This document shows, one piece after another, positions 1,632 through 46,658 of a stretch of 64,000 nucleotides of DNA. Location: assembly GCA_963806535.1 (NCBI GenBank), contig CAWDYC010000003.1, positions 224,001-288,000 of the forward strand, in the 5' to 3' direction. Under the pieces are notes generated by a model, which worked only from the letters and a program-made list of their open reading frames with translations, was not told the DNA's origin and searched no databases. This DNA comes from Candidatus Bathyarchaeota archaeon (GTDB lineage Archaea > Thermoproteota > Bathyarchaeia > Bathyarchaeales > Bathycorpusculaceae). The position numbers and the translations under genes are program-made. How positions within the stretch are numbered: the first letter of the stretch is position 1; the number at the start of each line of letters is the position of its first letter.

Positions 1632-1779
1632 GCAATCAGGCTGCAAATTAACTCCACTTTTCCAACACGGGTCTTTAAAAAATATTTTTGAGAAATCCAC
1701 TGCTGACTAGTCAATTTAAGAGTTTCCTATAGATAAATACGTTAACATAAAACATCACTATCTAGAAAGAGAGATAAAG

Positions 1780-2264: not shown

Positions 2265-2269
2265 TTAAC

Positions 2270-2524: not shown

Positions 2525-2641
2525 CCTGCTGGATGGGCAGTATGACGGGATTTGTGTTATAACATTTGTCACCATAGAAACCGTAGGTGCGATAGAGCAA
2601 TAGAGCACACAAGCAGAAAGCGCCTGACTTCGTACTTTCAG

Positions 2642-3142
2642 TTAGGTAGAGTTAGCTCTGAGCGGTTGCCCTTTTGGTCTTTTAAGGTGAAAGTATTCTT
2701 TCACTCTTGCTATTTGAAAATAAATCAGACATACTGAACTGTAAATTATGGGAACAAGGCAAATCTTGATTAAATATTTAGGAGTGGGAGCCCCAATAAA
2801 AAAAGGGTCACCAGCAAAGATTACTGGAACATATGATAACAGAATGAAAAGCCAAAAACCAATTACACAATACCAATTTCCCTTTTTAGGTTGATTTAAG
2901 GCCACAAAGATAAGAAAGGAAAAGAAAGCAGTAACAAACAGAAGGAGCGAAAGATTTGTTGCTGCCACGGATACATGAAATTGTGAGTCTCCAGCACCGC
3001 CAGCACCCAAAAGGCCAAAAAAGAGTACTGAATAGAACCCAAATCCCAATGAAAATAGCAAAGTTGCATACCTAATTATCGTTACTCCGACTGGTTTTGA
3101 GTCATTAGCAGGCTTTCCAGGGGTCTCATTCAACTCGGGCAT
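2642..3142 (-). CDS. Hypothetical four-TM membrane protein
   Basis: 166-aa ORF with four hydrophobic segments. Confidence 0.7.
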   Translation of the reverse strand: MPELNETPGKPANDSKPVGVTIIRYATLLFSLGFGFYSVLFFGLLGAGGAGDSQFHVSVAATNLSLLLFVTAFFSFLIFVALNQPKKGNWYCVIGFWLFILLSYVPVIFAGDPFFIGAPTPKYLIKICLVPIIYSSVCLIYFQIARVKEYFHLKRPKGQPLRANST

Positions 3143-3279
3143 CTTGTTTGATCCTGTCTTTTTCGGTGGTATCTAGATACAGTATTTGTACTATCGGGGG
3201 TTTTCCAATATAAAATCAACCTGTGTAGATTACGCAAGCTTTAGGCTATCAAGAACTACAAGTTGCAAAAGATTTCAAT

Positions 3280-6478: not shown

Positions 6479-6503
6479 TTAGAAAAAGAAAAGTAGCCTC
6501 TTG

Positions 6504-7947: not shown

Positions 7948-8054
7948 AGCGGATTCTCTTCTTTCCACAACTATACATGCAGAATATAAAACCGTAACGG
8001 GAACAACTGGCTAAAAAGTGTCGAATAAAGCGAGAAAAAAGAAAATGTTTCGCG

Positions 8055-8207
8055 TTATCGTCTGAAGAATTTCTTTTTCGGGAAGTCTTTGCATTCATAG
8101 ATTCTAAGTTGTCTTTGAGGTTCAATGCGGCATCTTTTGCGTGCGTTTTTTCGTCTTATCAGTGGAGCAAGTTGAAAGAAAGGGCATTTGGAACAGAGTG
8201 TGCTCAA
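8055..8207 (-). CDS. Small basic Cys-containing protein (50 aa), not in the ORF track
   Basis: TTG-start MSTLCSKCPFFQLAPLIRRKNARKRCRIEPQRQLRIYECKDFPKKKFFRR, 12 nt downstream of the permease stop. Confidence 0.35.
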   Translation of the reverse strand: MSTLCSKCPFFQLAPLIRRKNARKRCRIEPQRQLRIYECKDFPKKKFFRR

Positions 8208-8219
8208 GGTTTCTCGTTC

Positions 8220-9428
8220 CTACCTTGTCATCATTTTTCGGAATACCGGCAGTGCGATCGCGATCATGACTATGCCGAAGGCGATGAGGACGAGGAGGTC
8301 GGTGGATATTTGAGGTATCCCTGCGCCCAGCACCATGACTTTTCTTAGAGCATCTGAAGCGTATGTTAAGGGCAGTGCTTTGCTTATGTCCTGCATGTAC
8401 CAGGGCATCTGCTGTATGGGGAAGAACACTCCCGACAGGAACATCATTGGGAACATCAGCGTCATCATGAGCATCTGCGCGGTTTCCTGGTCTTTAGTGA
8501 ACGATGTTATTACTATGCCCAAGCCCACGAAGCTGAACACGCCGAGCAGCAGCAGCGCAAACACCAGCAGCAAGCTGCCCTGTACAGCGACTCCGAATAT
8601 TCCGATGGCTAACCCCAAGATTATAAGACCTTGGATTAAGCCTCGGGCCGTCTGCGCTCCAGTCTTACCCAGCAGGATGGAAAGTCTGTTTACTGGTGCA
8701 ACCATCATGCCGTCCATCGTTCCGATTTCCTTCTCCTGCGAGATAGCGACAGGTAAACCTGTCATGACACTCATCATAACGGTCATAGCCATTATGCCCG
8801 GCGCGATGAAGTCAAAGTAGCTCGGGTGACCTGAAATTACACCTTGAGTTTGTACATTAAAGGGCTGTATCACTGCAAGGGGGTTTGTAACTGTTGAATT
8901 CAGTGTTTGAACGTTGTGTATGGCTATCTGTTGACCCATTGCGTTGAATACACCGCTTAATGCGGCTTGAATTGTCGCAGATATCTGGGGGTTTGATTCA
9001 TCGGTGACTATTAAGAGGGTGCTTTGTTGCCCCGTTAGCATGCTTTGGGAGAAGTTGCTGGGTATTACGATGCCGCCTTCAAGGTCTCCACGCTGTACCA
9101 TATCCTTGAGGCTCGCTGTGCTTGACACGTTAGTTATTACGAGCATGTGTGTCTGATCGTTGATTGCTTCCAAGCTCTGGATGAACCCTCCATGAGTCGT
9201 GTTTGACATAAATGCCCCGCTGAAGCCTGAGTCCTCGTTAACTATTCCAACCTGCAAGTTGCTTATGGTACCGTTGGATGGGTAGATGAATCCAACCATA
9301 ACCATCATGAACAATGGCATGACGATTAAGAGCACTAATCCAAGTCGGTTGCGAAATAGTTCAGTTAAGTCTTTTTTAGCAATTCTTAAGCTATGCTGTA
9401 AAATAGTTTGTGCGGTCATGTCTATCAC
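8220..9428 (-). CDS. ABC-2 type exporter permease
   Basis: EKEIGT, FLSGVFFP, LPLTYA motifs; six TMs plus extracellular loop. Confidence 0.92.
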   Translation of the reverse strand: MIDMTAQTILQHSLRIAKKDLTELFRNRLGLVLLIVMPLFMMVMVGFIYPSNGTISNLQVGIVNEDSGFSGAFMSNTTHGGFIQSLEAINDQTHMLVITNVSSTASLKDMVQRGDLEGGIVIPSNFSQSMLTGQQSTLLIVTDESNPQISATIQAALSGVFNAMGQQIAIHNVQTLNSTVTNPLAVIQPFNVQTQGVISGHPSYFDFIAPGIMAMTVMMSVMTGLPVAISQEKEIGTMDGMMVAPVNRLSILLGKTGAQTARGLIQGLIILGLAIGIFGVAVQGSLLLVFALLLLGVFSFVGLGIVITSFTKDQETAQMLMMTLMFPMMFLSGVFFPIQQMPWYMQDISKALPLTYASDALRKVMVLGAGIPQISTDLLVLIAFGIVMIAIALPVFRKMMTR

Positions 9429-10444
9429 CTTACTCTACTTGGCGATGCACCAAACCTTGGTCCATGCTCTTGCTTGATTTTCTGGTCAGCGCTGTCTCTA
9501 ACTTCGTGACCAGTTATGTGCAAGAACACGTCTTCAAGGCTGGGTTGCAGGTTCGCCATCGATGTGATCTTTCCACTTGTCTTTCTGATAGAATCAATAA
9601 TAGAGTCGAAAGCTTCTTCGCCGTGAACTATAACATGCAGGGTTGTGGAGTTTTCCTGAGTTACCGCATCCGCGCAGTTGAGCGCTTTCACGGTGGCTAC
9701 CATGCTGGGTGTTAGGTTTGCTACTTCAAGTTTGATTATCATGGTGTCTCCGCCTGAAATTATCTTTTTAAGGTTAGTCGAAGTATCGAGCGCTATGATT
9801 TTTCCATGGTCAACAATTGCAATGCGATCGCAGAGCAAGTCAGCGTCAAGCATCATGTGTGTAGTTATGATTACAGTGGTTCCGTTTTCTTGGTTGAGTT
9901 TTCTTACGAACTCTCTGATTTCCACTGATGATTGTGGGTCTAAACCTAGCGTGGGCTCATCAAGAAATAGTACTTGAGGCATGTTAAGCAAGGCTCGAAC
10001 CACGTTCATTCTTTGGCGCATACCAGTGGAGAATGTGCCAACTTGAGCGTTTTTGAATTTGGTTAGTTGTACTAGTTCTAATAAGTCGTCGATTCTTTTG
10101 TTAAGCGTGTCTTTTGGGATGTTGAAGAGGCTTCCGAAGAACCAGAGGTTTTCTTTTGCGGTTAAACGATTGTAAATGATCATTTTTTCTGAGACGATGC
10201 CAATTAGTTTGCGTACTTCTGTGTCGTTCTTTACTGTATCGAATCCGCCGATGAGGGCTGTTCCTTTGGTTGGTCTTGAGAGGGTGGAGAGCATGCGTAA
10301 GGTTGTGCTTTTGCCTGCTCCGTTTGGACCTAGTAAACCGAAAATTTCGCCTTTTTTAACATCGAATGAGATGTCATCTACTGCTGTAAACTTGCCAAAC
10401 ATTTTAGTAAGGTTCTGTACTTTGATTATGTTGTCAGTATCCAT
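9425..10444 (-). CDS. ABC exporter ATP-binding protein (DrrA-like)
   Basis: GPNGAGKST, FSTGMRQR, LDEPT, PSLEDVF; likely start MDTDN. Confidence 0.93.
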   Translation of the reverse strand: MDTDNIIKVQNLTKMFGKFTAVDDISFDVKKGEIFGLLGPNGAGKSTTLRMLSTLSRPTKGTALIGGFDTVKNDTEVRKLIGIVSEKMIIYNRLTAKENLWFFGSLFNIPKDTLNKRIDDLLELVQLTKFKNAQVGTFSTGMRQRMNVVRALLNMPQVLFLDEPTLGLDPQSSVEIREFVRKLNQENGTTVIITTHMMLDADLLCDRIAIVDHGKIIALDTSTNLKKIISGGDTMIIKLEVANLTPSMVATVKALNCADAVTQENSTTLHVIVHGEEAFDSIIDSIRKTSGKITSMANLQPSLEDVFLHITGHEVRDSADQKIKQEHGPRFGASPSRVR

Positions 10445-10534
10445 TTGTAGATCGACCACTTGAATATTATTCAGTGCAATATATAGCGGTAAAATATAAG
10501 TATTACCCAAATATACTATAGATTCGAAACACAA

Positions 10535-11098
10535 ATGGCATCAGAAAAGGAAGAAAAGACTACAGCAAACTGGATGAAGGAAGCCCAGAAAGGATACATA
10601 CGAATGGGAGTCCTCATTCTTCTCAACAAGAAGCCATCCCACGGCTACGAAATCATGAAAGAAATCAACAACCGAACAAAAGGCTTCTGGCAACCCACAC
10701 CAGGCGGCGTATACCCAATCCTAAGTAGCTTAGAAAAATCAGGCTACATTAAAGGACATTGGGAAACACAAAACAACCGCAGGCTCAAAGTTTACAAAAT
10801 TACTAAATCCGGAGAGCTTATTCTTAGGCGAGCCATTTTGAAGCAATCGGAAATTTTCAACAACATCGGTAGTTTGTTCCGTGAATTTTCCAGAGATGTT
10901 CTTAACATTGAGCCGACAGATGCATCTATGCCACTTATGCCTTCGCCTTTTACGCCCTTCCTTGAAGAACAACCAAATACCCTCCAAAATCTTGAACTTC
11001 AGCGAAAGCACACATATGAAACGTTCAAAATGATGCAGGAAAAACTTAAACAGATTGATGGGCGAATTAGAGAACTTAAGAAAGCCAGCAACCCCTGA
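10535..11098 (+). CDS. PadR family transcriptional regulator
   Basis: HGYEIMKE, GGVYPILSSLE, YKITKSG; divergent from the ABC operon. Confidence 0.9.
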   Translation: MASEKEEKTTANWMKEAQKGYIRMGVLILLNKKPSHGYEIMKEINNRTKGFWQPTPGGVYPILSSLEKSGYIKGHWETQNNRRLKVYKITKSGELILRRAILKQSEIFNNIGSLFREFSRDVLNIEPTDASMPLMPSPFTPFLEEQPNTLQNLELQRKHTYETFKMMQEKLKQIDGRIRELKKASNP

Positions 11099-11178
11099 TT
11101 CTCAAAAACCATAACCCACTCAATCAGTCTAAAGAATTAAATGCCTGACATATATTTCTAAATAAGAAGTGAAGTCTA

Positions 11179-11503
11179 ATGTTCCGCGTTAGAGTAAGCA
11201 AAATTGAATCAAATCGTGATTTAGATGGCAATCTTGGAAAAAGAATTGAACTTATTGAAGAACGAGAGACTTAACCCCAATGTTCTAAGACCTCAATCGG
11301 ATGAAGCTAAAATGGCACAGGACATTATGCAAGCGCTCCAGCAGCAAATGCCTTTTCTGCCGCAGAGAACACAGCTTGCTACGCCAAAAATAATTCTCTT
11401 CTTGACTGAACAGGAATACGATAGTTTTGGCATTACTTTTGATGTAAACCAGGTTTACGAAGTTATGCTGGAAAATCAGGCTATCCGTTTTAGGAAAGTT
11501 TGA
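11179..11503 (+). CDS. Arcadin-1-like protein, frameshifted near 11265
   Basis: Joined frames: MFRVRVSKIESNRDLDGNLGKRIELIEER/PNVLRPQSDEAKMAQDIMQ...PKIILFLTEQEYDSFGITFDVNQVYEV; resembles Thermoproteales arcadin-1 (recalled motif PRITLWLTEEE). Confidence 0.7.
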
Positions 11504-11828
11504 GAATTTCTTTTCTCATTTGCCGTAGCGCTGAATGCTTAGGATGGAAAGACAAAACAAACATCATGCTTCTCAACGCTGAACTTATCCCTTCCAAATC
11601 TGAAATTTTTCCTTCATCACAATAGAGCGGAATAGGGTCATCTCCGTCATTTTCTTCATAATAAACATAGATTGGCGAACCAGCCCTATCCAATTTTACT
11701 ACTTCAAAATCTAAATTTAATCGTTTAGCCGTTTCCTTAGCGGCGGTCCTAACGGAATCCAACCGTTTCCTAAACGGAACACCTGTTGACGTATAAACCA
11801 TCAATTTTCCACAATTCCCTTTGAACAT
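11490..11828 (-). CDS. Hypothetical protein
   Basis: 112-aa ORF with GGTGA SD-like site upstream. Confidence 0.7.
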   Translation of the reverse strand: MFKGNCGKLMVYTSTGVPFRKRLDSVRTAAKETAKRLNLDFEVVKLDRAGSPIYVYYEENDGDDPIPLYCDEGKISDLEGISSALRSMMFVLSFHPKHSALRQMRKEILKLS

Positions 11829-12011
11829 GGCATATCACCAAACAACCATTGTTTAAAATCCCTTTTAATACAAATCATGAAACGACATCTTGAAGCAGTG
11901 GAGAGGTGACTGAAAGTGAAGGTTAGCACTAGCGGTTGTTGTTGTGTACGGGCAACCACAACGGCTTAAATTCAAAACAAAAGTCCTTTTTCTTTATGTG
12001 AGGTGAAAAAA

Positions 12012-12439
12012 ATGGTTATTGGCGAGAAACTATGGGAAGGCAAAGGCAAAAGTGGAGCAGGATTCATAAAATCAGTTGGATATGGAAGGCGTTACTCAAG
12101 TCTATACATGGACAGCTCAAATGAAAGGTGTCGGAAAAGCTAAAGGCGTAGATTGCAACCTAAACGTGACAGGAATGAGCATGACTCCTCCTAAAGGCAT
12201 TGCTTGGTCAAAAGACCAAGGAATGCTCATGACTATGACTGGTGATATGGGCATAGTGAAAGGAGTTAGCTTGATGAAGATGACGATGGGCAAAGAACCC
12301 AACAAGCGTAGGCTTATGGACGTTCATGACAATGTCAGAAAAACTTGGTTGGCTCAACGACACAATTGCAGTTGTCACTTTTGAAGCGACCGACCCAATG
12401 TGGACAGAACTTAACATAGCAATCTGGGAATGGAAGTAA
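12012..12439 (+). CDS. Hypothetical beta-rich protein, two frameshifts
   Basis: GAGGTGA SD; MVIGEKLWEGKGK...VYTWTAQMKGVGKAKG...KLGWLNDTIAV...IWEWK across frames. Confidence 0.6.
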
Positions 12440-12456
12440 ACTTTAGAGCTGGTTTT

Positions 12457-12918
12457 ATGCAAGAACAAGAACATCATTGGCAAGCGCCTGAATGGTGGTA
12501 CAAAAAACGCCCATCAACTGACGAAGCTTACTTTGAAAACATGTGCCGAGTAATTTTTCAAGCAGGCTTAAACTGGCATGTAATCGACAACAAATGGCCA
12601 TCAATCAAAAAGGCTTTTTCAAATTTTGATATCGGAAAAGTAGCATGCTTCACTGATTTCGACGTTGAAAGACTCATGAAAGACTCTGGAATCGTCAGGA
12701 ATAAGGGCAAAATTAAAGCCATTATCCAAAACGCTCAGAACTTCAAAGCTATAGAAAAACAGTATGGTTCATTCCAAAAATACCTCGATAGCCTCGATAA
12801 ATCAAACAACTATGAAAACGCAACTAAAGATTTAGTCAACAAGTTCAAGTGGCTAGGTCCGCCATCAGCAAGCCTTTTCTTGTACACTGTTGGAGAAAAA
12901 ATCAGTGTCTGGGACTAA
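12457..12918 (+). CDS. tag: DNA-3-methyladenine glycosylase I family protein
   Basis: FQAGLNW, GIVRNKGKIKAIIQNA, FKWLGP. Confidence 0.85.
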   Translation: MQEQEHHWQAPEWWYKKRPSTDEAYFENMCRVIFQAGLNWHVIDNKWPSIKKAFSNFDIGKVACFTDFDVERLMKDSGIVRNKGKIKAIIQNAQNFKAIEKQYGSFQKYLDSLDKSNNYENATKDLVNKFKWLGPPSASLFLYTVGEKISVWD

Positions 12919-12989
12919 CAAAATTTTTTCCTTTTTTTATTAAAACTATCTTTTTAAATTTGAACCCATTAATTTTAACTTGAAAATAA

Positions 12990-13265
12990 ATGGCTAAAGC
13001 TCGAGTTCACATATTTGTAAGTGGCAGAGTTCAAGGTGTTTTCTTTAGGCAAAAAACTAAACAGCAAGCTGAAAGATTGAGTGTGACGGGATGGGTTCGC
13101 AATTTACCTGATGGCAGGGTTGAAGCAGTCTTTGAAGGCGACGAAAAAGCCGTTAAAACACTCGAAGAGTGGTGTCATCATGGCCCTTCTTCTGCCATAG
13201 TAACAAATGTTGATCCTAAATGGGAACCTTATCGGGGAGAATTTATCGGCTTTGAGGCTTACTAG
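12990..13265 (+). CDS. acyP: Acylphosphatase
   Basis: SGRVQGVFFR, GWVRNLPDGRVE. Confidence 0.95.
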   Translation: MAKARVHIFVSGRVQGVFFRQKTKQQAERLSVTGWVRNLPDGRVEAVFEGDEKAVKTLEEWCHHGPSSAIVTNVDPKWEPYRGEFIGFEAY

Positions 13266-13660
13266 GCTTTTTTCTTTGGCACTCTAAAATGAGAATCTTT
13301 TCCAGCGCTAATGTATTCTCCGCCCATACCTCGCACGGCTGAGGCAATTTTTGCAAAGTTTTCTGATCCCAAAAACTGCTTCGGCTTGATTATTATGTAG
13401 TCGCCTTTCTCTTCAAAGCCTAACCGGGTTTCCAACTCTTCGGGAAAAGACATGCGAATATCATCTAGCGACCTCAGTTTTGAACCAGCCTCGGTAGGTG
13501 CTGGTGCTTGAGCAGGTGGCGGCTGAGTAATTTGACCTACTGCAAGGGATTTGAGTGATGCTGAAACGGACCGGAGTTCTTCCGAGGTTTTGCTTAAATC
13601 CGCAACAAGCTTGTCTACCTTTGTCATTAATTCATTGAGTTTTTGTTTGTCAGTGCTCAT
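13262..13660 (-). CDS. Hypothetical protein (N-terminal coiled coil, small C-terminal domain)
   Basis: 132-aa ORF with GGAG SD upstream. Confidence 0.7.
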   Translation of the reverse strand: MSTDKQKLNELMTKVDKLVADLSKTSEELRSVSASLKSLAVGQITQPPPAQAPAPTEAGSKLRSLDDIRMSFPEELETRLGFEEKGDYIIIKPKQFLGSENFAKIASAVRGMGGEYISAGKDSHFRVPKKKA

Positions 13661-13740
13661 CCAAACGCTCCCTCAAACTCCTAAATAAACCAAGACGCTT
13701 ATTAATTATTTGCATAGCTAAATGTGGAAGAAAAAAGGGC

Positions 13741-14779
13741 ATGATTGAAATTGACGGGAGCGAAAAAAGCGGAAGTGGCACAATTCTTCGCCTCTCCGTT
13801 GCCTTAGCTAGCCATCACAAAACAGCCGCTGCATATTTGTAATATCAGACAGAATCGACCGCAGCCGGGCCTAAAGCATCAGCATTTGGAAGCCGTGTTG
13901 ACTGCGGCTAAACTGTCCAAAGCTAAAGTTCAAGGAGCAACGTTAGGGTCAAGAGAGCTTTGGTTTGAACCCCGGCACATCAGTGGCGGCAATATTGAAG
14001 CTCTCATTGAAACCGCGGGAAGCATCCCAATGCTGCTATTGGCAACTTTGCCTATTTGCTTATTCGCCGATAATCCAGTTCGTTTACATGTAGCTAAAGG
14101 TGGAACAGACACGACTCATGCACCAACAATAAACTATATGCGGTATGTATTTTTGCCGGCTCTCAGGCAGATGGGAGTCGATGCTGAGATAACTGTTCAA
14201 AAATACGGTTATTACCCAAAAGGCATGGGCGAAGCAACAATGACTGTCAAACCTAACCGAAACTTAAGACCTATTCAGCTGTCGGATTTTGGTAAAGTCA
14301 AACGCATAAGTGGTGTTTCAGTCTGCACTTTCTTAGCTGACAAGCAGGTGGCAGAGAGGCAAGCAATAGCAGCACGGGAGTGCCTTTCTCAAAGCGGCTA
14401 TAACATTATTGTCGAGGTCATAAACGACCAGTCAAACACTTTCCAAAAAGGAAGCTCAATTGTTTTGTACGCTGAAACAGACACAGGTGTAATCATAGGT
14501 GCGGATGCAATAGGTGAACTTCGCAAAATGAGTGAAGCCGTCGGAAAAGAAGCCGCTCAAAAACTCTTAGCCGAATTATCCGTTAAACCCTCAGTTGACG
14601 TTTACTTGGCAGATATGCTTATTCCTTATATGGCTCTTGCACAGGGCAAATCAACATTTTTGGTTAGAACGATTTCTGAGCATATTGAATCTAACATTTG
14701 GCTTATGGAAAAAATGTTAAACATTAAATTTACCATTGAAAAAGTAAACAACATCTATAAAATAACGAGAAACAGCTGA
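13741..14779 (+). CDS. rtcA: RNA 3'-terminal phosphate cyclase, frameshift near 13812
   Basis: MIEIDGSEKSGSGTILR, RPQPGLKHQHL, GYYPKGMG, DMLIPYMALA. Confidence 0.9.
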
Positions 14780-37621: not shown

Positions 37622-38263
37622 TTAGGTTTCCTCTTCACATTTACACTTAGATTTCAAACCTAAAGCTAAAAGATACATTTCTGAACTTTTTTGTCGGCTG
37701 GCCAGTGGTTTCACAATCTTGACTGTTTCAAAAAGTTCTTTTGCTGTAAGAATAAATTCGTTGAACATTTCGCCTTCAAAGAGTTTTACAAAAAAGTTTC
37801 CTTGTGGTCGTAGTACACATTGGGCTATTTCTAAGGCTCTGGTTGCTAAGTCAATTTGTTTTGCTTGATCAACTTCCCAAACGCCAGTTATGTTTGGTGC
37901 CGCATCAGAAACCACCACGTCAGCTTCGCGAGGCAGAAAAGAACGAATTTGATCTATAATATCTGGTTCAGTAAAGTCTGCAATAATTGTTCTTACATAT
38001 TCTTGAGTGAAGGGCTCAATTGGTTTAAGATCAATACCTAAAACGTAACCGTTTTTTCCAGTCATTTTTCTTGCAGCTTGAATCCAGCCACCTGGCGCGG
38101 CTCCTAAATCAACTACAACGTCATTTCTTTTTATAAAACCATATTTCTCGTTGGCTTGTGCTAGCTTGTATGTGGCTCTAGAACGGTAGTTTTCTTCCTT
38201 GGCTTTTTTGTAGTAGTATTCGCGTTTTCTATCTCGGATCCAAGCTTTCGGCAACGGAATCAT
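37622..38263 (-). CDS. rlmE: 23S rRNA 2'-O-methyltransferase RlmE/FtsJ
   Basis: YRSRATYKL, DLGAAPGGW, SDAAPN, SRQKSSEMY. Confidence 0.95.
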   Translation of the reverse strand: MIPLPKAWIRDRKREYYYKKAKEENYRSRATYKLAQANEKYGFIKRNDVVVDLGAAPGGWIQAARKMTGKNGYVLGIDLKPIEPFTQEYVRTIIADFTEPDIIDQIRSFLPREADVVVSDAAPNITGVWEVDQAKQIDLATRALEIAQCVLRPQGNFFVKLFEGEMFNEFILTAKELFETVKIVKPLASRQKSSEMYLLALGLKSKCKCEEET

Positions 38264-38690
38264 CCTCTTCTGAGCTTGGCTCGCTTGGTGCCTGTGGTTC
38301 GTTGGGTCCTTCAGGGGCAACAGGAGCAGTAGCAATGGCTTCTTTTCCTAAGCCAAGTATCCAATCGGTAAGTTTCGGGCAGCTTTTTGGAGAAAGCGCG
38401 GTTGTTGGATCACATCTTGCATTGTCCGGACAAAGTAGACAAGGGCAATCAATTATGGTCTCTATTGAAGCAGGAAGCCTTTTTGGATAAAGTCGGTAGG
38501 TCCATCTACCTTCTTGTAATTCTTTTTCTCGACGGATTAACCCTTTTTCTTCTAATTTAATTGAGACACGTGAGCCTTCTCGGCTGCTTGCCCCGAGTTC
38601 ACGCCATAAATCTGATTGGAGCACGCCTTGATAACCCGTATTTACCACATAATGGAGTGCTTTCTGTTCAAGGTCATTACGTTTAGGCAT
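38229..38690 (-). CDS. RPC34-like / transcription factor E beta (wHTH plus Fe-S Cys cluster)
   Basis: GVLQSDLWREL wHTH; PCLLCPDNARC...SPKSCPKLTDW matches the RPC34-type Cys motif. Confidence 0.8.
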   Translation of the reverse strand: MPKRNDLEQKALHYVVNTGYQGVLQSDLWRELGASSREGSRVSIKLEEKGLIRREKELQEGRWTYRLYPKRLPASIETIIDCPCLLCPDNARCDPTTALSPKSCPKLTDWILGLGKEAIATAPVAPEGPNEPQAPSEPSSEEDDSVAESLDPR

Positions 38691-38749
38691 CTAATATCAA
38701 TTCCAGATAATACAATTAGAATATAAGCGTTGAATTCAAATAAAAATAT

Positions 38750-38774
38750 GTTTCCTTAGCTGTAGCTGTAGATA
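38750..38774 (+). repeat. Left terminal inverted repeat / attL arm GTTTCCTTAGCTGTAGCTGTAGATA
   Basis: Its reverse complement matches 44920-44944 at 18/25, including a perfect TATCTACAG. Confidence 0.75.
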
Positions 38775-38841
38775 TATCATCAATTGACCCAGAATTCACA
38801 AAGCCTTTAAGTTTTGAGGGGGGAACTAACTTTTGAGCGAT

Positions 38842-40142
38842 TTGACAGTAAAGACCGAAAAAGACTTGCTGGAATTCGAAAGCGGTAGAAACTGGAAACC
38901 ACATTTACACAGCGAACACACTAAGCGGATTTTCTTTAGGCATTTAGAAAAATATTCGCAATGGGCAAAATGAATCCTGACGAATTGATAAATTTTAAGA
39001 TTGAAGGTTTGAAAGCTGTAGCTACAGAAAAAGAGTTTCAAGCTGAACGGCTATTAGAAAAATATCTGAGAGAATCAGGTATGACTCAATCTGTACAGTT
39101 TGAAGCTAAGAACGCCATAATCAGCTTTTACAAGCATAATTGGCGAAACCTTAACCCTGAATGCGCTAAAGACGTTGAACCACAAGAAGCAAAGATAAGA
39201 ACCCCAAAAATAGAAGATATTCAACTGCTTGAAAGCAACTGCACAACTGCAAGAGATAGAGCATTGACTTGGTTTTTCCCATCAACCAGTTTTAGAGTAG
39301 GAACATTAACCAAGTTGCTGAGAAGTGACCTAAAGCCAACAGGTGACAGCGAAGTTCCTTATTATTTGGAGATTGAAGCTAAGCGGCTTAAAGGTTCTGG
39401 AATCGGCAAATACAAAGGTTTGAAACAAATTACTTTCGTTAACAGCTTTGTTTGGGCTAAAATGATTGATTACTTCGCTGAAGCTGAAAGAAGAGGTTTC
39501 CATCTGATTGAGGATTCACCGCTTTTCATAGGGTACAAAGGTCACTTTACTAAAGAAGAAAGAAAACTTGCAGTTAAACCCAAAAAGGTTAAGGCAATCA
39601 CTGAAGGCGCAATCAATAACACTTATGACAATGCATCGCTTGCAGCATGGAAAGATTTAGAGGAAAAACGCTTTTCTCCACATGACAACCGTGATGTACT
39701 ACAGAATGCTTTAGAAAATGCCAATGTCAACGCTAACATGATAGCTCCAATGCTAGGGCACAAACCTAAAAACGCTGTAGACTTCCATTATTCAAGTCAC
39801 TTATGGCAAGAATTGCTTTTAAAGTATAAACAAGCCTTGCCTTATTTACTGCCTATAACAGTTGAAAAAGTTAAAGCTGAATTAAACGACACAGAAACCG
39901 AATTACATCAAACCAAAAAAGAATTAACCGAAACAAAAGAAGAAGGCAAAAATCAGCAAAATAAAATTAATGCTTTAGAGTCAATTATACTTATGACTAT
40001 GCCCAGAGAACAATTAGAACAATTAGTTAAGGCAAAACTTGAAGCAATGCCAAAATCGGATATATGCATGGCTGTTGAAGAAGGCAAACCACTAAGCGAA
40101 TTAACAAGAGAAGAATTAATTGAAATATACCATAAACTATAA
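38842..40142 (+). CDS. Tyrosine recombinase/integrase with C-terminal coiled coil (indel near 38970)
   Basis: Catalytic set FRVGTL (R), PHDNR (HxxR), LGH, FHY; an upstream frame from TTG 38842 supplies the N-terminus. Confidence 0.9.
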
Positions 40143-40390
40143 ACTCTTTTTCTTTAGTTTTTTTATCAATTTATTATTATCTTTTTTGCCTAAGTTATCT
40201 TACTCAAACTCCAACATTAACAATAAATGCTGTACTAAGCTAACACATATGAGGGGTTTGTCTTATCCGTTTATTGTAGGTAGTAGAATAATTTTGTTTT
40301 ATATGTTGGTATTTATATACAGAATTTACTATAGATAATTAACAATATCCGCTTTACCATGATATTTTAATGTGCGCACAAGGCATAAGC

Positions 40391-40486
40391 ATGGACAAAA
40401 TAATCAAGATTCTTGACTATAACGCTGTTATTCCACAAACTCCCGTGCCTGACCTGTACAACAAAAGCCCATACCAGCCACCTTAG
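40391..40486 (+). CDS. Possible 31-aa peptide
   Basis: MDKIIKILDYNAVIPQTPVPDLYNKSPYQPP after a TATA-like ATATTTTAA. Confidence 0.25.
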   Translation: MDKIIKILDYNAVIPQTPVPDLYNKSPYQPP

Positions 40487-40563
40487 CCATAAAACTTGGT
40501 GAAAATAAAATTATGCTTCTTAACAAAAATTGTAAACTTAGTTATTATCAGGTAACTTTGGCA

Positions 40564-41136
40564 CTATTGATTAACTATTACTCTATTGTGTTTTCTGGGA
40601 TTTTTGAGCCATGACCTACCGCATGACCGACAATTCCACATTATACCTTTTGAAGCTACGTTACTACTATTGCATTCTATACAGTTTGGGTTAGTTGTTT
40701 GTGGTTTAATTGCCTCTGTAAACCCTCTCTTTTGCTGTTCAAATTCGTTAAATGCTGTTGGGTAACGCTCTCTCCATAGTTCCTTTAAGAAGTGATAGTT
40801 CGTTAAAATTGCCGTGTATTCTGGGCTACCGTTCAAATCTGCTCTTTCAAATTGAGCGCCTATTTTACATAAAAGCGATAAGTACCGTTCATAATCGCAA
40901 CTGTCAATTAAAAATATTTTAGCAAATTCACGAATAGACGCTTTTTGTTCATCATTTAGGGTTATGTATCGCTCAGGTATTGTTAAATTCGTAAAATCAA
41001 AATCCCTCAGTACCTTTGCGTATTTTGACTCAAATAATTTGAAATATTGTTCACTATCACGGATTTTACTGCTATCAATATCAACGTAACTTTTTAATTC
41101 TGTTTTAAGCCAAACAATCAAATTTTTATCATACAT
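40564..41136 (-). CDS. Hypothetical protein with C-terminal Zn ribbon
   Basis: CIECNS...WNCRSCGRSW. Confidence 0.75.
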   Translation of the reverse strand: MYDKNLIVWLKTELKSYVDIDSSKIRDSEQYFKLFESKYAKVLRDFDFTNLTIPERYITLNDEQKASIREFAKIFLIDSCDYERYLSLLCKIGAQFERADLNGSPEYTAILTNYHFLKELWRERYPTAFNEFEQQKRGFTEAIKPQTTNPNCIECNSSNVASKGIMWNCRSCGRSWLKNPRKHNRVIVNQ

Positions 41137-41139
41137 GGT

Positions 41140-41284
41140 TAATCATCCCATTTTTTCTGCAATCTTCGCAAATTGTTAATTGAACATAATCGTATTGTTC
41201 GCCTTGTCTCCAACTTTTACCGCAAGTAATACAAACCCATAATGTTTTTTGGCTAAGTTGTTTTGTGCAAAGTGAACTAACCAT
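41140..41284 (-). CDS. Small Zn-finger protein, frameshifted; 3' end approximate
   Basis: WVCITCGKSW...TICEDCRK. Confidence 0.5.
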
Positions 41285-41437
41285 TTAGGCATCATCCCAG
41301 TTTTTAGTGTTTAAACAGCATAAGCCTGAGCATGAGCAACAAACAAGCGCACCGCAATTTTCGCATTTTAACACAGCTTGATTTTTATTGCATACGCTAC
41401 ATGAGGTAACTGCTTTAACTTCGCATTCGTTAATCAT
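41285..41437 (-). CDS. Small Cys-rich protein, frameshifted
   Basis: MINECEVKAVTSCSVCNKNQAV/KCENCGALVCCSCSGLCC; overlaps the stop of the upstream gene. Confidence 0.55.
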   Translation of the reverse strand: MINECEVKAVTSCSVCNKNQAVLKCENCGALVCCSCSGLCCLNTKNWDDA

Positions 41438-41838
41438 GCTTTAACCTCAATAGCAATCATATCGCCTTTGCGAACATCAAGCCCAGAATAACTTTTAGCA
41501 AAACGATTATTACAACAAAAACATCTGTAAATTTCTTTATAACCAATTTTCTTTTCTAATTCTGTGTGGTCATGGTTGCAAATTGGGCATTTAATAGGTT
41601 TAATAAAATACGCTGGGTTAACTTCAATATTTGATTTAGTAGTTTGTTCTATTGCCCGTTTGTATTTCAGTTTATTTTTAAAAAGGTAATTAGCGTTACA
41701 TTGTGGTGAGCAAAAATAACTGTTTTTTCGTTTTGCTTCAAACGGTTTATTGCAATTTTTGCATGGCTTCATTTCAACCATAATAGTTTTAGGCAACCAA
41801 ACTTTTTGGTGATTAGTGCATTTTTCGTATTTACTCAT
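41434..41838 (-). CDS. Double Zn-finger protein
   Basis: CKNCNKPF...FCSPQC and CPIC...CFCC. Confidence 0.75.
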   Translation of the reverse strand: MSKYEKCTNHQKVWLPKTIMVEMKPCKNCNKPFEAKRKNSYFCSPQCNANYLFKNKLKYKRAIEQTTKSNIEVNPAYFIKPIKCPICNHDHTELEKKIGYKEIYRCFCCNNRFAKSYSGLDVRKGDMIAIEVKA

Positions 41839-41865
41839 TAATCAAAACCCCGTATGTGTCGAATG

Positions 41866-42123
41866 CTGTTTGAAGGCTGGGCAAACTCGTAAGGTCATGG
41901 TGTAACCTAAAATTAGCCCAGCCAAAACAGACCGTTTCCCAGCATTGAGTTGATACCCTAAACAAAGCTGGGTAACTATGAAGTAGGCTTGCACCAAAAG
42001 CCGAAACTTTGAAGGTGTAAGCCATCATCCCCGTGTGAGATGACTTGGAAATTCGCCCAGCTACAGAATATGCAAAGAAAAGATGAGTAAACCTTGCATT
42101 GGTGAATTTTTCTATAGCTGGGC
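41866..42123. other. Five contiguous stem-loops (candidate structured RNA or ssDNA signal), overlapping ORF 41831-42133
   Basis: Stems at 41866-41930, 41934-41976, 41986-42023, 42025-42043, 42055-42123; three use CCCAGC/GCTGGG. Confidence 0.65.
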
Positions 42124-42251
42124 ATATGGGCATTTTTGTTAGCTCCCTAAAGATTTTGGCTGTAAGCTATTTGACCGTAACTAAAGCCTTCTGACTCGCT
42201 GTAAGACGCTTTTCCGCAATAAATCAAATAATTGCCTTTAGCTTCAAGGTC

Positions 42252-42584
42252 TTTAATATATATTTGTGAATTAATATATTTTTATTTTTATAAAAAAAAA
42301 TAAAAAAAATATAAAATAATAAATATAAATTATAGAAAAATTAAAAAAATATTATAATTATATAAAATAAAATAATTAATTTTTAAAATAATATTAAATG
42401 TAAAAGAATTAAAAAGATTAGATATAAAATAGAATTAATAATAAAAAAATAAATTTAATTTTTTTTATTAAATTAATTTATTAATGTTAATAATTGTTAA
42501 TATATAATTATATAATAAAAAAAAATAAATAAAATGAATTAAAATAATAGATAATAAATAGTAAAAAAGAAAATTGAAATTAAA
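42252..42584. other. Almost pure A/T tract with no C on the + strand (possible consensus artefact)
   Basis: No C between 42251 and 42585; it overwrites the 5' end of the next gene. Confidence 0.7.
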
Positions 42585-42937
42585 CAATATCAGAAAACAG
42601 GGGCAAACACCTGTGTAGAGATTGCGTAAAAACATGTTCAAGTTGCGGTAAAAACCTTCCAATGGCGCATTGGTTTGGTCAGTCATACACTTCTAACGCT
42701 TTTGCTCAGAGTTTAGAAAAACAAGGAAAGCCTTGGGTAGGCTCAGGGGTTTGCTTAGAATGTTATAATAGTAAAATAGCTCAAGAGGAAAAAGAACAAA
42801 GGCTAATTAGAGACGCACAGTTAGCACATGCAAAAGAAATACTTGAGACACCAACAATCTGGGAATGCGGGTATTGCAAGACAATAAACAAAGGAAAGTT
42901 TTGTTCAAACTGCGGTAGCTCAAGAAAAAAAGCATAA
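42560..42937 (+). CDS. Multi Zn-ribbon protein; 5' end lost in the A/T tract
   Basis: HLCRDCVKTCSSCGK upstream of the called ORF; CLEC, WECGYC, FCSNCG. Confidence 0.7.
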
Positions 42938-42938
42938 T

Positions 42939-43298
42939 TTGGGGAAAAAACCGTTGAATAACAATGAATTAAGCGATGGAGAAGTTCAACTTTCTATCTT
43001 AACTTTGCTTTTTAACATCAGAAGGAAACAACCAAAAGACCCAGAAGTAAGAAGAGAGAAAATCATTGAAGTCTTAGGTCTCCCAGAAGATAGAATTGAA
43101 TTCAATACAGATTACCTTAAAGAGAAAAGGCTCATAGAAATCTTAGGAACTTATTGTGGTGGATGGGTTTTTGCAAAAATAACTGCTTTGGGTATTGACG
43201 CAATTAATAACAAAGAAGAGAGGAAAAAGACTTATAATTTCTCAGGGCTAAAGATTCCAATACACATAGAAAACAAGATTGCTCTTATCAATTTCTAA
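42939..43298 (+). CDS. Winged-helix hypothetical protein
   Basis: DYLKEKRLIE...AKITALGID wing motif. Confidence 0.7.
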   Translation: MGKKPLNNNELSDGEVQLSILTLLFNIRRKQPKDPEVRREKIIEVLGLPEDRIEFNTDYLKEKRLIEILGTYCGGWVFAKITALGIDAINNKEERKKTYNFSGLKIPIHIENKIALINF

Positions 43299-43729
43299 CA
43301 TCCACACAAATTTTTAGCATTCAAAAACACTCCGAGGGGGGTCTGGCATAATTTTGAGCCTTTTTTAAGCCAAAAATTTCAGAGGTTAACCAAACTTATT
43401 TAAAAACTGCTTTTACCCCACTTTTGAAAAGTTTCAATAATGGCTTAAAAAAATCAAATAATAGCCAATAATCAACAAAAATCAAAATCAATTCTGAAAC
43501 CAATAAAAATGGATTAATGAATTCCATAAAATAATTTGTCAGAAATTAATCGTAGAAAAAACCCCTATGTATGCCTTAAAAAATGACGAAAAATAACCTC
43601 AATTTAGCCTTATTTTTACCATTAAACTGTTGAACAGATATGCGTTTGTTAATTGCGCTTCTCAAAAAGGTTTAAAAAACCAAAAAACGATGCTTTACCC
43701 ACTATATTACGAAATTAAGGTGAAAAAAA

Positions 43730-44845
43730 TTGGAAACAACCAAAAAAGAAACGGGAAATTCAGATTCAGGGTTTAGACCTGACTCTGACAAATTAGATTA
43801 CAAAACGTTGGTAAAAAAAATTCAAGAAAACGGCGACCTTGTTATTTTAGGTCAAAAAGGTACGTGTAAAACTACGTTACTGCAACATCTAAGCAGAGAA
43901 CTTAGAACCGAAAACAACAATCACGTTATAATATTTGAAACCTTTCCGAAATGGATTCATGAATTCGATTCTATACCCTACATGATAATAAAAGACAGCG
44001 ACGTACAATCAACGGAAAACACGCCTTATCTGGAAGAAGACAAAAGCATTATTCAATGGTCAAAGGATTTCAAAGTTTTAAACGCAGAAATTGTTAAAGA
44101 TTTCTTGAAGCAAAACAAAGATTGCATATTCTTAATCGAAGTCGAAGACATGGAGCGAATAAGCGCATTCATGACGTTTGTTATTTATACAATCTACCGT
44201 AAACAATACCTCAGAGCTAAAGCTGGAAACTTGGAGACAGTTAACCAAAATTATTGGTTTCTCTGTGAAGAAGCCCATAACTTAATGGATTCAACGGTTT
44301 TAGCCAAAAAAACCTTTAACAAATTGCGAAAGATACAAAATGAATTCCGAAACCTGAAAATGCATTTAATTTGCGTAGCTTTGAGACTCCAAGATTTAAG
44401 CCCAAAAATAAGGAGCAAAATGTCTATCGTGTTAAGCAGAGTTAGCCTTGACGACTATCAATTAAAAGTTAGAAGCCTACTGAGAAATTCAAAGTTTAGA
44501 GACATAATTACAGAACTGCCAAAAGGTCAATTTATTTACCCTGAACTTGACCTTAAACTGACTACAGAACCGTTTAAGCAAATTGGCACACCAACCGAAT
44601 TTAAGCCAAAACCTACAGAGAAACCAAAAGAGCAATTCGTGGATGCATGGAAACCACAAATAAGGAAATTTAACCCAATCCAGAAAATTTTAAGGAAAAT
44701 ATTTTTCTGGCTACCAGATAGCAATAGTAATTATACAACAAATGACGGTGAAACTACAACAGAAGATAACAGCAAAGAAGATAGCCAAGGTGACGGATTA
44801 ATGACCTTAGATAATGGAGAAGAATTGTTTCCAGAAGAACCCTAA
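43730..44845 (+). CDS. P-loop ATPase of FtsK/HerA-like type
   Basis: Walker A GQKGTCKT, Walker B WFLCEEAH, NEFRNLKM...LRLQDLSPKIRS; acidic tail; AGGTGA SD. Confidence 0.75.
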   Translation: METTKKETGNSDSGFRPDSDKLDYKTLVKKIQENGDLVILGQKGTCKTTLLQHLSRELRTENNNHVIIFETFPKWIHEFDSIPYMIIKDSDVQSTENTPYLEEDKSIIQWSKDFKVLNAEIVKDFLKQNKDCIFLIEVEDMERISAFMTFVIYTIYRKQYLRAKAGNLETVNQNYWFLCEEAHNLMDSTVLAKKTFNKLRKIQNEFRNLKMHLICVALRLQDLSPKIRSKMSIVLSRVSLDDYQLKVRSLLRNSKFRDIITELPKGQFIYPELDLKLTTEPFKQIGTPTEFKPKPTEKPKEQFVDAWKPQIRKFNPIQKILRKIFFWLPDSNSNYTTNDGETTTEDNSKEDSQGDGLMTLDNGEELFPEEP

Positions 44846-44919
44846 AGTTTTTTAAAATAAATTATTAAAAATTGGAGAATAGAAAATATGAGCAACCAAG
44901 AAATAGCCGAAAAGCGATT

Positions 44920-44944
44920 TATCTACAGTTGTAGAGATGGATAC
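44920..44944 (+). repeat. Right terminal inverted repeat / attR arm TATCTACAGTTGTAGAGATGGATAC
   Basis: Inverted partner of 38750-38774, followed by AAATAT. Confidence 0.75.
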
Positions 44945-44975
44945 AAATATGTATCCCCCAGAAAAATTGGAATCC

Positions 44976-46010
44976 ATGAAAAACATGCCGAAAAGAAGCA
45001 AAGAAGATGGCAGTTACTGTTTAGGGATAGAATCTTCAGCAGACGATTTCGGTGTCGGTATAGCTACTTTCAATGGAGAAATTCTTGCCAACAAATACGA
45101 CAGCTACATACCAGTTGAAGGCGGAATTCACCCAAGAGAAGCAGCAAGACACCACTCGGAAGTTGCGGACAAAGTGCTAAAAGAAGCTCTGAGTTTTGCA
45201 GGTGTAAAACCAAACGACCTATCGGTTATAGCGTTTTCGCAAGGTCCAGGCTTAGGGCCTTCTTTACGTACGGGAGCCACTGTTGCCCGAGCTTTAGCTT
45301 CTTACCTAAACATCCCGCTTGTAGGAGTAAATCATTCTGTAGCGCATATTGAGATTGGAAAACTAAAAACTGGCGTTGTTGACCCTGTAACCCTTTATGT
45401 TTCAGGAGGCAACACCATGGTTACAGCTTTTGAAGCTGGACGATACAGAGTTTTCGGAGAAACCTTAGACATCGCCCTTGGAAATTGTCTTGACGTTTTC
45501 GCTCGCGAAGCAGGTTTAAAGCATCAAAAAGGTGTACCACTTGGGGCTGCCGTTGAGAGGTTAGCGGCTAAAGGAAAAAATCTGGTTTCTTTGCCTTATG
45601 TTGTTAAAGGTATGGATTTGTCTCTTAGCGGCTTGTTAACATCGGCGACAGCTCAATTGAAAAGTGGAAATTGCTGCTTAGAAGATTTGTGTTACAGTCT
45701 TCAGGAGCATGCTTTCTCAATGGTTACTGAAGTTACTGAGCGAGCGTTAGCACATACAGAAAAGAGAGAGGTTTTGCTAACAGGCGGCGTAGCAGCCAAC
45801 AAGAGATTACAAAATATGCTTCAAATAATCGCCGAAGAACATGATGCCCGTTTCAATGTGGTTCCACTTGAGTTTGCCACCGACAACGGCGCCATGATTG
45901 CCTGGACAGGCGTTTTAGCTTACAAACATGGTTTGGTTACACCGTTGGATACGAGTTATGTGAAGCTTCGGTGGCGAGTTGACAAGGTGGATGTGCCATG
46001 GATAAATTAG
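44976..46010 (+). CDS. kae1: KEOPS subunit Kae1 (t6A synthase)
   Basis: LGIESSAD, GGIHPREAARHH, NHSVAHIE, VSGGNT, DNGAMIA; start ATG at 44976 or 44985. Confidence 0.96.
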   Translation: MKNMPKRSKEDGSYCLGIESSADDFGVGIATFNGEILANKYDSYIPVEGGIHPREAARHHSEVADKVLKEALSFAGVKPNDLSVIAFSQGPGLGPSLRTGATVARALASYLNIPLVGVNHSVAHIEIGKLKTGVVDPVTLYVSGGNTMVTAFEAGRYRVFGETLDIALGNCLDVFAREAGLKHQKGVPLGAAVERLAAKGKNLVSLPYVVKGMDLSLSGLLTSATAQLKSGNCCLEDLCYSLQEHAFSMVTEVTERALAHTEKREVLLTGGVAANKRLQNMLQIIAEEHDARFNVVPLEFATDNGAMIAWTGVLAYKHGLVTPLDTSYVKLRWRVDKVDVPWIN

Positions 46011-46658
46011 CTGAACAAACGCTGTTCAAGAAGGGCGCCGAAGCCAGCCTATACCTTACAGATTGGCATGAAAGAAAAGTCATCGTAAAAGTGCGAATCC
46101 CAAAAAGATACCGTCCTGAGGCATTGGATAAGCAGATAAGAAGTTTCCGAACGGTACACGAACCGCAGTTAATGCATGAAGCTAAAGCCGCTGGGGTACC
46201 AACACCGCTGATATTCATGGTAAATGTTCCTCAAGCTTCAATCACCATGGAATATGTGGAAGGGCAGCAGATCAAGCAATTGCTAAACAAAGTTCCCAAA
46301 GATCAACGTCAGAAATTATGCCTAATAATCGGTGAGTTAATTGGCTAAACTTCACAGCCATGGCTTAATTCACGGCGACTTAACAACTTCAAACATGATT
46401 CTTAGCCCTGAAGGCAAAATTTTCTTTGTTGACTTTGGCTTAGGAGAAAGAAACATTGAAGTGGAGGCACAAGGAGTGGATTTACATTTGATGAAACGAG
46501 CGCTACAAAGTACACATTACCAGTTCTGGGAAGAATGCTTCAAGAACATCCTGTGTGGTTACTCATCGATTTTGGGACCTGAAGCAGCCGAAAATGTTTA
46601 CGAGAAAATAAAAGAGATAGAGAGGCGTGGCAGATACATTGAAGAAAGAAAACAATAA
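45998..46658 (+). CDS. bud32: KEOPS kinase/ATPase Bud32, indel near 46343
   Basis: KGAEA, HGDLTTSN, DFGL, ERRGRY. Confidence 0.93.

Follow-up and report, generated by a model that had tools for sequence, protein, structure and literature searches.

Cryptic integrated elements (CIE) are small integrated archaeal elements which carry an integrase and short flanking repeats and lack viral and conjugative hallmarks. Among those of Thaumarchaeota, 15 of 68 were intergenic and the repeats were shorter than in other archaea (PMC6563490). The 6.2-kb insert analyzed here is an archaeal CIE in kind, with a type II lambda-like integrase. It is situated between a TFE-beta-like gene and kae1/TsaD in a stretch of 64,000 nucleotides (the window; contig CAWDYC010000003.1, positions 224,001 to 288,000) from the genome of a soil archaeon (Candidatus Bathyarchaeota archaeon, GCA_963806535.1), which comprises 2.95 Mb in 12 contigs. 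All positions given below are those of the window. The insert is very probably a site-specific integrative element of a bathyarchaeotal family in which the integrase gene comes first, the gene of a HerA/FtsK-fold ATPase comes last and 3-8 kb of fast-changing small genes are placed between them. Like the CIE, it possesses an integrase and attachment (att) repeats, and no hallmark of capsid, terminase, conjugation or replication was recognized by the scans. It differs from them in its bathyarchaeotal host and in the constant ATPase at its end; PMC6563490 states that CIE have no signature gene, and its passages on them mention no promoter-box targeting.

Most described archaeal integrases target tRNA genes, and prophage PsiM100 uses an AT-rich intergenic site (PMC8371274). 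The element resembles the type II, pNOB8-type systems outlined in the same source in that the integrase gene stays whole after integration, attP lies outside the gene and inverted arms surround the core; it differs in that its integrase is very divergent and falls below the Pfam cut-off. Going by the account in PMC4158269, the nearest described gene set is that of ArcVen-P3, a putative 9.5-kb provirus of Archaeoglobus veneficus, which possesses an integrase, an FtsK-like ATPase, Zn-binding proteins and small DNA-binding proteins. The same account gives ArcVen-P3 an SSV-type split integrase, a tRNA-Ser target, 55-nt repeats and a jelly-roll capsid candidate, none of which was seen here. The Bathyarchaeia virus survey, as far as its descriptions of virus types go, contains large tailed, filamentous and spindle viruses only (PMC10848311). 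A search of full-text literature found neither a description of this family nor promoter-box attachment sites, supplementary att-site tables being outside that search.

Two copies of AAATAT, at 38744-38749 and 44945-44950, bracket the insert, which has a GC content of 0.20-0.37 against about 0.39-0.45 in the flanks. Directly inside them are the two terminal inverted-repeat arms, GTTTCCTTAGCTGTAGCTGTAGATA on the left (38750-38774, plus strand; inner GTTTCC, outer CTGTAGATA and a GCTGTA tandem) and TATCTACAGTTGTAGAGATGGATAC on the right (44920-44944, plus strand; outer TATCTACAG and inner GGATAC). The arms are complementary at 18 of 25 positions in exact register relative to the AAATAT repeat, and a repeat search of the window recovered the same pair as a 39 nt inverted repeat at 72%. 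No pair among 400,000 random 25-mer pairs from the window reached 18/25 (binomial estimate 4.8e-6), and when the pairs were sampled within the AT-rich element a fraction of 4.5e-5 did so. The bounds, AAATAT flanks and 25-nt inverted ends given in a preliminary description of this DNA were all reproduced from the coordinates. Its 6-bp repeat or spacer was right as to the presence of AAATAT, but the identity common to both junctions is 8 nt, AAATATGT. In the 64-kb window the pattern AAATATGT.TCC is confined to the two element ends, and it occurs six times in the 2.95-Mb genome.

The left junction, attL (38740-38755, plus strand), reads ATAAAAATATGTTTCC and is composed of the host ATAA half of a TATA-like box, the shared core (38744-38751) and the element TTCC. 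The right junction, attR (44941-44956, plus strand), reads ATACAAATATGTATCC and is composed of the element ATAC, the shared core (44945-44952) and the host ATCC. The empty site has A at both variable positions. Over the wider junction pattern ATA[A/C]AAATATGT[A/T]TCC, 16 of 18 positions agree between attL and attR, and in the related locus L028 the flanking repeat is identical over 12 of 12 nt. The two mismatches are of host type at the outer side and of element type at the inner side, so the strand crossover can be placed, as judged from these junctions, inside the 8-nt core. A length of 8 nt is the usual overlap size of tyrosine recombinases. The flanking repeat is attB/attP identity rather than a target duplication.

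The kae1 locus was taken from 30 related genomes, and 19 loci were compared with both flanks. One of them, L011, is occupied; five alignments (L020, L022, L024, L026 and L027) ended before the junction and were left out of the empty-site reading. All 13 relatives alignable to the junction on both sides carry one uninterrupted site, C-A-x-ATAAAAATATGTATCC. The empty site predicted earlier for the TFE-beta/kae1 intergenic region was thereby found in every readable relative of the same genus, and that of the nearest relative, L009 (Kae1 92% identical), agrees with the predicted 29-mer at 27 of 29 positions. The empty target had been credited with one good half-site; this half-site was present, but most relatives add a second, weaker one, AGATAA (4/6).

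The window element is single-copy in its genome, where the sole other related DNA is a different element on contig C4, and the end motifs GGATACAAATAT and CTGTAGCTGTAG occur once each. A scan of 81 genomes of the genus with a full-length integrase found homologues in 27. Five other integrase loci at 72-100% identity (G004, G031, G073, G090 and G059, two of which are the public records L028 and L029) all adjoin TFE-beta-like and methyltransferase genes, giving an occupancy of the kae1 site in six of the 81 genomes. Integrases of 60% identity or less were placed away from these genes in the loci examined. Integration is site-specific: related integrases share one attB, and the core is single in the 13 empty sites. 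The expectation that integrase homologues share the inverted-repeat ends was borne out in the five other genomes at 72% identity or more, and the expectation that they sit at different loci was not, as all five were found at the same kae1 site.

The elements at the kae1 site measure 2685, 5058, 5130, 6201 and 10140 nt and have almost nothing in common besides their ends and the integrase gene, to which two of them add the ATPase. The ends of six elements align, with arm scores of 15-19 out of 25. In L029, whose integrase is 74% identical, the outer motif CTGTAGATA is altered on both arms together, as expected of protein-binding sites which evolve with their integrase. On a kae1 tree of 24 rows, in which two of the six occupied rows belong to one genome, the occupied state needs four changes. 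Well-supported branches demand at least three of these, and not one of 200 bootstrap trees was compatible with a single change. The sister of the window genome, G013, has the empty site. As the tree demands repeated changes and the sister is empty, the kae1 site has been filled or emptied several times. One occupied locus, L145 (G059:C11), holds a 2.7-kb remnant at about 1403-4088 in which both ends survive and the integrase is reduced to its C-terminal part. In L145 kae1 is matched in two pieces, which may reflect a frameshift.

The conserved start of kae1/TsaD (44976-46010, plus strand; Pfam TsaD, E 1.1e-81) is at 44976. On the other side, the TFE-beta-like gene for a winged helix-turn-helix (wHTH)/Cys-cluster protein (38229-38690, minus strand; Pfam B-block_TFIIIC, 24.2 bits against a cut-off of 22) is transcribed away from the element. 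It adjoins the site in relatives too, and the name TFE-beta is the label of the preliminary description only. The box ATAAAAATAT is conserved across the genus (13 relatives) and ends 25 nt before the conserved kae1 start ATG. It is regarded as non-coding because the ATG inside the core has an open frame with kae1 in 3 of 13 relatives only and not in the other 10. The TATA box of a leaderless or short-leader archaeal gene is expected at about that distance from the start. A tRNA scan of the window returned 0 genes, by which a tRNA-gene target was rejected. The earlier view that the target is neither a tRNA gene nor a gene end was correct, but the target is not anonymous, being the conserved TATA-like box 25 nt upstream of kae1. 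After integration, attR leaves GATACAAATAT in place of GATAAAAATAT (AATAAAAATAT in the window genome), and the host copy of the box faces the integrase gene about 85 nt ahead.

A second element of about 7.9 kb was found in the same genome between a leuA-like gene and ilvD (G000:C4:60949-68851; positions 5949-13851 of locus L007). It is flanked by TTAAATATAAA and has a tRNA-Ser(GCT) gene inside; its integrase is 38% identical to that of the window element and its ATPase is 72% identical in DNA. Six relatives have the empty ilvD site with a single TTAAATATAAA copy about 36 nt upstream of the ilvD ATG. The repeats of L139, an element of another genome, also contain TTAAATATAAA, and the 20-nt repeat on either side of an 8.5-kb element in G092 includes TTTAAATATAAA. 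In a count of hexamers 50-21 nt upstream of 1,822 crude ORF (open reading frame) calls of the window genome, the most enriched were TAAATA (4.5x), TTAAAT (3.9x) and CTTAAA (3.4x). Promoter-box targeting is well supported at ilvD-type sites and, from the position and conservation of the box, plausible at kae1. It is not general for the whole integrase family.

The main ORF of the integrase (38961-40142, plus strand, 393 aa) encodes a divergent tyrosine recombinase, whose match to Pfam Phage_integrase (E 5.2e-6) is just below the cut-off. The N-terminal 46 codons (38833-38973, plus strand; TTG start at 38833-38835) are out of frame with the remainder. The catalytic residues R155, K187, H284, R287, H310 and Y320 (L028 numbering) are invariant in 13 homologues including the window protein, and they follow the R-K-HxxR-H-Y order of the tyrosine recombinase superfamily. 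A profile of the 13 sequences matched the archaeal XerA structures 5hxy and 4a8e at E about 0.006 over Arg-I and the HxxR..H..Y region; the NCBIfam XerA score was 19 bits against a cut-off of 220. In L028 and L029 the integrase begins 128 nt further upstream and is continuous, with 412 and 456 aa. Since the core ends 81 nt before the integrase start, attP is external to the ORF and the gene is whole when integrated. Uninterrupted integrase ORFs of 411-456 aa were found in integrated L028, L029 and L143, as is characteristic of type II, non-partitioning integrases. An element with a type I (SSV-type) integrase was considered and rejected, the right end having no integrase fragment and the left end having the whole gene. 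The start codons of the integrases are TTG or GTG.

In the proposed mechanism, the attP of the circular form would consist of two nested inverted repeats, with CTGTAGATA outermost and GGATAC and GTTTCC inside it, which enclose the core AAATATGT. Within this core the integrase would swap strands with the near-identical chromosomal sequence which forms the 3' half of the TATA-like box of kae1. As attP reproduces 16 of 18 positions of the box, integration would leave it near-intact before kae1. The terminal ATPase would pump DNA, either to package the element or to transfer it.

When the ends were joined in silico, an ORF of 48-52 codons ran across the core in five of five kae1-site elements; the corresponding ORF of the C4 element has 61 codons. 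In the window its 5' part is at 44888-44950 (plus strand, ATG at 44888) and its 3' part is at 38750-38836 (plus strand), where the stop TGA (38834-38836) overlaps the integrase start TTG (38833-38835). The stop meets the integrase start as TTGA at the kae1 site, and as GTG followed by a nearby TAA in C4. Substitutions in this junction ORF are spread evenly over the codon positions with no third-position excess and are mostly non-synonymous. It looks like a putative leader coupled to the integrase gene which would be whole only in the excised form, and if it has a role, this would lie in its translation rather than in its product. In the haloarchaeal pleolipovirus SNJ2, the integrase gene is overlapped by small ORFs that share its transcript and that integration requires, whereas excision does not (PMC5861418). 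By description, this fits a small ORF coupled to the integrase gene; SNJ2 differs, in the same description, in its tRNA-Met target, its 14-bp repeats and its accessory genes, which are unsplit by integration.

The P-loop ATPase of 371 aa (43730-44845, plus strand) is the product of the hallmark gene of the family, which is always the one that immediately precedes attR. An AlphaFold (AF2) model built from a 32-sequence alignment had a mean pLDDT (predicted local distance difference test) of 80.8, and Foldseek returned 163 PDB and 41 BFVD matches for it at E<=0.001. The matches included HerA (9x1m, E 3.8e-8; also 4d2i). Better target coverage was obtained with small packaging ATPases of membrane-containing viruses, namely STIV2 B204 (TMt 0.68), the ATPase of PH1 virus (0.67), a Corticoviridae NTPase and A32-like enzymes. 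Walker A residues K47/T48 and the acidic pair E180/E181 are invariant in the 32 sequences. The modelled protein thus has the features of the HerA/FtsK superfamily fold, namely an additional-strand, catalytic-glutamate (ASCE) P-loop, a Walker A motif and an acidic Walker B motif. It shares the fold and Walker motifs with HerA, STIV2 B204, A32-like enzymes and the mad8 protein of the MADS defence system (PADLOC mad8, E 2.9e-8) and differs from them in falling below every curated cut-off; no DUF87 or FtsK_SpoIIIE match was found at E<=0.01. A distant family member, P0297, passes the cut-off of Pfam DUF87, the HerA central domain (25.0 vs 23.2 bits).

The ATPase family is compact and unnamed. It comprises 157 proteins at E<=1e-3 in 90% clusters, without names or with unrelated automatic names; at the same threshold, a search of 1.84 billion representatives of 50% clusters gave 207 clusters. 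It was present in 12 of 81 genomes of the genus and, in a phylum-wide sample, in one of 301 genomes, the window's own. The order of integrase first and ATPase last, 6-10 kb apart, recurs among 74 metagenome loci and in genomes of the genus. Integrase-left and ATPase-right layouts were recorded in the window element (W), L029, L007, L030, L034, L052, L060, L066, L072, G001, G063, G084 and G092, and the layout spans two unrelated integrase clusters. Among other members, L060 carries as cargo a methylase that has an Mrr domain, L066 a SIR2 gene and L030 a C39 peptidase.

Some members have features of their own. In the metagenome element L066 (8719-10972), a SIR2_2 gene is placed directly upstream of the family ATPase, resembling SIR2-HerA defence pairs. 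Two distantly related metagenome elements of the integrase-to-ATPase type, L052 (3619-4569, minus strand) and L072 (5920-6987, minus strand), encode a protein of HK97 fold, resembling a capsid protein or an encapsulin (AF2 pLDDT 72; Foldseek E 3e-14; PHROG major head protein at E 5e-11 to 6e-8). This protein has 44 homologues, mostly with PF25209, and no portal or terminase was recognized within about 9 kb in these elements. Two ATPase homologues of about 600-630 aa, P0276 and P0295, may contain inteins, as their two matched halves are separated by a LAGLIDADG-type domain; P0297 is a third long homologue with the same split and without a LAGLIDADG match. The 2.6-kb contig L051 has an ATPase gene followed by an integrase gene 1.2 kb later and was searched for a free attP, of which it gave no clear sign.

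A number of results weigh against an active integrative element which targets promoter boxes. The Pfam Phage_integrase score of the window protein, 26.8 bits, is 0.3 bits short of the cut-off of 27.1, and the single integrase sequence matched no PDB entry at E<=0.1. No relative of the ATPase was found in IMG/VR with either sequence or alignment. By tBLASTn, phage records contained no match to either the ATPase or the integrase, and plasmid records contained none to the ATPase. Terminal overlaps indicating circular contigs were found in 0 of 32 metagenome loci of at least 4 kb. The second element is decayed, with its integrase and its ATPase both split. The related element L137 has a flanking repeat which is not TATA-like, and AAATAT is absent from the 25 most enriched upstream hexamers. 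Because of this absence, the argument for a promoter role of the kae1 box is one of position and conservation. The window integrase also has one base fewer than L028 and L029 near 38966, resulting in the frameshift. The bud32-like KEOPS kinase gene downstream of kae1 (45998-46658) is likewise represented by two overlapping ORFs with a break near 46340-46348, where a 1-nt insertion (T before AAAC, beside an A run) is present relative to four relatives. As the essential bud32 shows the same kind of indel, the frameshift of the integrase is not proof of decay, and the frameshifts in the window genome are likely to be assembly consensus errors. If the 1-nt deletion in the integrase is real, the window copy may be inactive.

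Scans of all ORFs of at least 50 aa with Pfam, PHROGs, NCBIfam and PADLOC gave only integrase, P-loop ATPase and zinc-ribbon signals in the window element. The claim that it has no recognizable replication initiator (Rep) or capsid gene stood in these scans, the capsid negative being a sequence-scan result which distant capsid folds may escape. With no capsid or replication gene, the window copy would move as a plasmid-like circle or with a helper element. It is possible, though distinctly less probable than an integrative element in its own right, that the insert is the remnant or satellite of a small virus, in which the ATPase is a packaging motor and the capsid genes were lost or never present, leaving it dependent on a helper. 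The fold matches of best coverage are indeed viral packaging ATPases (STIV2 B204, TMt 0.64-0.68), L052 and L072, with ATPases 47% and 39% identical, encode the HK97-fold capsid protein, and some ATPase homologues contain putative LAGLIDADG inteins. ArcVen-P3 offers a precedent of 9.5 kb which, by its description, joins integrase, FtsK-like ATPase, capsid and Zn-binding proteins (PMC4158269). Against these stand the lack of a capsid-like gene in W, L028, L029 and L007 by Pfam or PHROGs, a capsid gene at only 2 of 78 ATPase loci, the lack of an IMG/VR or phage-record match, and the normal pairing of HK97 capsids with terminases and not with HerA/FtsK ATPases.

The conserved pair of integrase and translocase-like ATPase, the only genes so conserved, would also suit an integrative plasmid which passes between cells as double-stranded DNA through an FtsK-like translocase. 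Actinomycete integrative conjugative elements transfer double-stranded DNA in this manner by TraB. The HerA/FtsK fold agrees with this, as do a weak match to Pfam TrwB_AAD_bind (15.5 bits vs a cut-off of 20.5) and an AT-rich, palindrome-rich region which may be an origin. It was nevertheless considered unlikely: no Rep was recognized, the ATPase has no evident membrane segment as judged by eye, and neither a matching plasmid record nor a circular contig was found.

Still less probable is a role of the ATPase in defence, as cargo which partners an effector in the manner of HerA and stands outside the machinery of the element. The PADLOC mad8 matches (E 2.9e-8 in the window, 3e-7 in L066 and 7.7e-6 in L029) point in this direction, MAD7-MAD8 being described as an ATPase-nuclease module in PMC13662399. 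The top PDB fold matches are the HerA proteins of SIR2-HerA and DUF4297-HerA complexes, and L066 has its SIR2_2 gene immediately upstream of the ATPase. W, L029 and L007, however, have no conserved effector partner upstream of the ATPase, which keeps its terminal position despite wholly different cargo. At 371 aa it is also without the N-terminal barrel region found in HerA proteins, which are 500-600 aa long and are mostly covered as targets to only 0.29-0.39. A transposon which is bounded by terminal inverted repeats and duplicates 6 bp of its target is hardly credible, and the transposon-like alternative raised earlier fails with it: the inverted ends and the short flanking repeat would suit it, but it is refuted by a single genomic copy with unique end motifs, by related elements at the same site in 6 of 81 genus genomes, with all integrases of at least 72% identity at one site with the same ends, by a repeat of constant sequence which is already single in the empty site and past which the similarity extends, and by an enzyme which is a tyrosine recombinase. 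The site-specific integrative element keeps its place before all of these, and the earlier assignment to a small integrative tyrosine-recombinase element agrees with the precise bounds, the empty site in 13 of 13 relatives and the invariant catalytic set.

Bathyarchaeia are among the most abundant archaea of soils and sediments, and their mobile elements are almost unknown. The compact family described here from sequence offers bounds exact to the base, one site which occurs naturally both empty and occupied across six species, and another site in the window genome. It provides a ready substrate for first recombination assays in Bathyarchaeia and a candidate integration tool where genetics is lacking. 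If transcription mapping confirms the box, a conserved landing site in a promoter box rather than in a tRNA gene, with the promoter of an essential gene rebuilt, would be a new safe-harbour solution. The ATPase family and its occasional HK97 partner may indicate a new kind of small capsid-forming element. A bolder and rather speculative extension is an undescribed lineage of very small archaeal viruses or satellites. Its members would use host TATA boxes as att sites, restore the promoter from the box copy which they bring along and control direction by a junction ORF which is cut by integration. Some of them would pair an HK97-fold shell with a HerA/FtsK pump instead of a terminase in genomes of about 9 kb.

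Between the integrase and the ATPase, the window element encodes small proteins on both strands. A 190-aa protein with a C-terminal zinc ribbon (40564-41136, minus strand; Pfam Zn_Ribbon_YjdM, 22.3 bits, below the cut-off) has a 53%-identical homologue in element L034, and its best ESM Atlas score was 0.86, under the 0.9 level. It is followed on the minus strand by a 51-aa CxxC...CxxC protein (41129-41284; zinc-ribbon matches weak, E>0.02), a 50-aa Cys-rich protein (41285-41437) of no family in the Pfam and PHROG scans, and a 134-aa protein with two zinc ribbons (41434-41838; Pfam Zn_ribbon_PaaD, 20.8 bits, below the cut-off, and weak PHROG HNH-type zinc-finger matches). On the plus strand are a 91-aa Cys-rich protein (42662-42937), with no family above threshold, and a 119-aa protein (42939-43298), which returned 0 families in Pfam, PHROGs, NCBIfam and PADLOC. 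The cargo was described earlier as about five Zn-finger proteins, a hairpin cluster, a wHTH protein and an FtsK/HerA-like ATPase. Five small Cys-rich proteins, two of them with weak Pfam zinc-ribbon matches, the hairpin cluster and the ATPase fold were confirmed; the wHTH assignment of the 119-aa protein was not, no Pfam family being found for it at E<=5.

The hairpin cluster (41840-42250, minus strand) is a structured non-coding stretch with GCCCAGC/GCTGGGC stems and contains four of the five GCCCAGC sites of the window. Its predicted RNA fold had z=-5.1 on the minus strand, with 0 of 100 shuffles as good, and z=-1.8 on the plus strand. An Rfam search over 38600-45100 gave no match at E<=1, and no such cluster is conserved in L028 or L029. 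A 100-aa ORF called in this stretch is probably not a gene. The sequence CTGTAGCTG, shared by the left end and the hairpin region, was dropped as a candidate since two matches occurred in 3 of 100 shuffles. The probable role of the cluster is that of a leader to the leftward operon or of an element of an origin. Next to it, an AT-rich divergent intergenic region with palindromes (42250-42600, GC about 0.20) is a putative location of promoters, of an origin, or of both.

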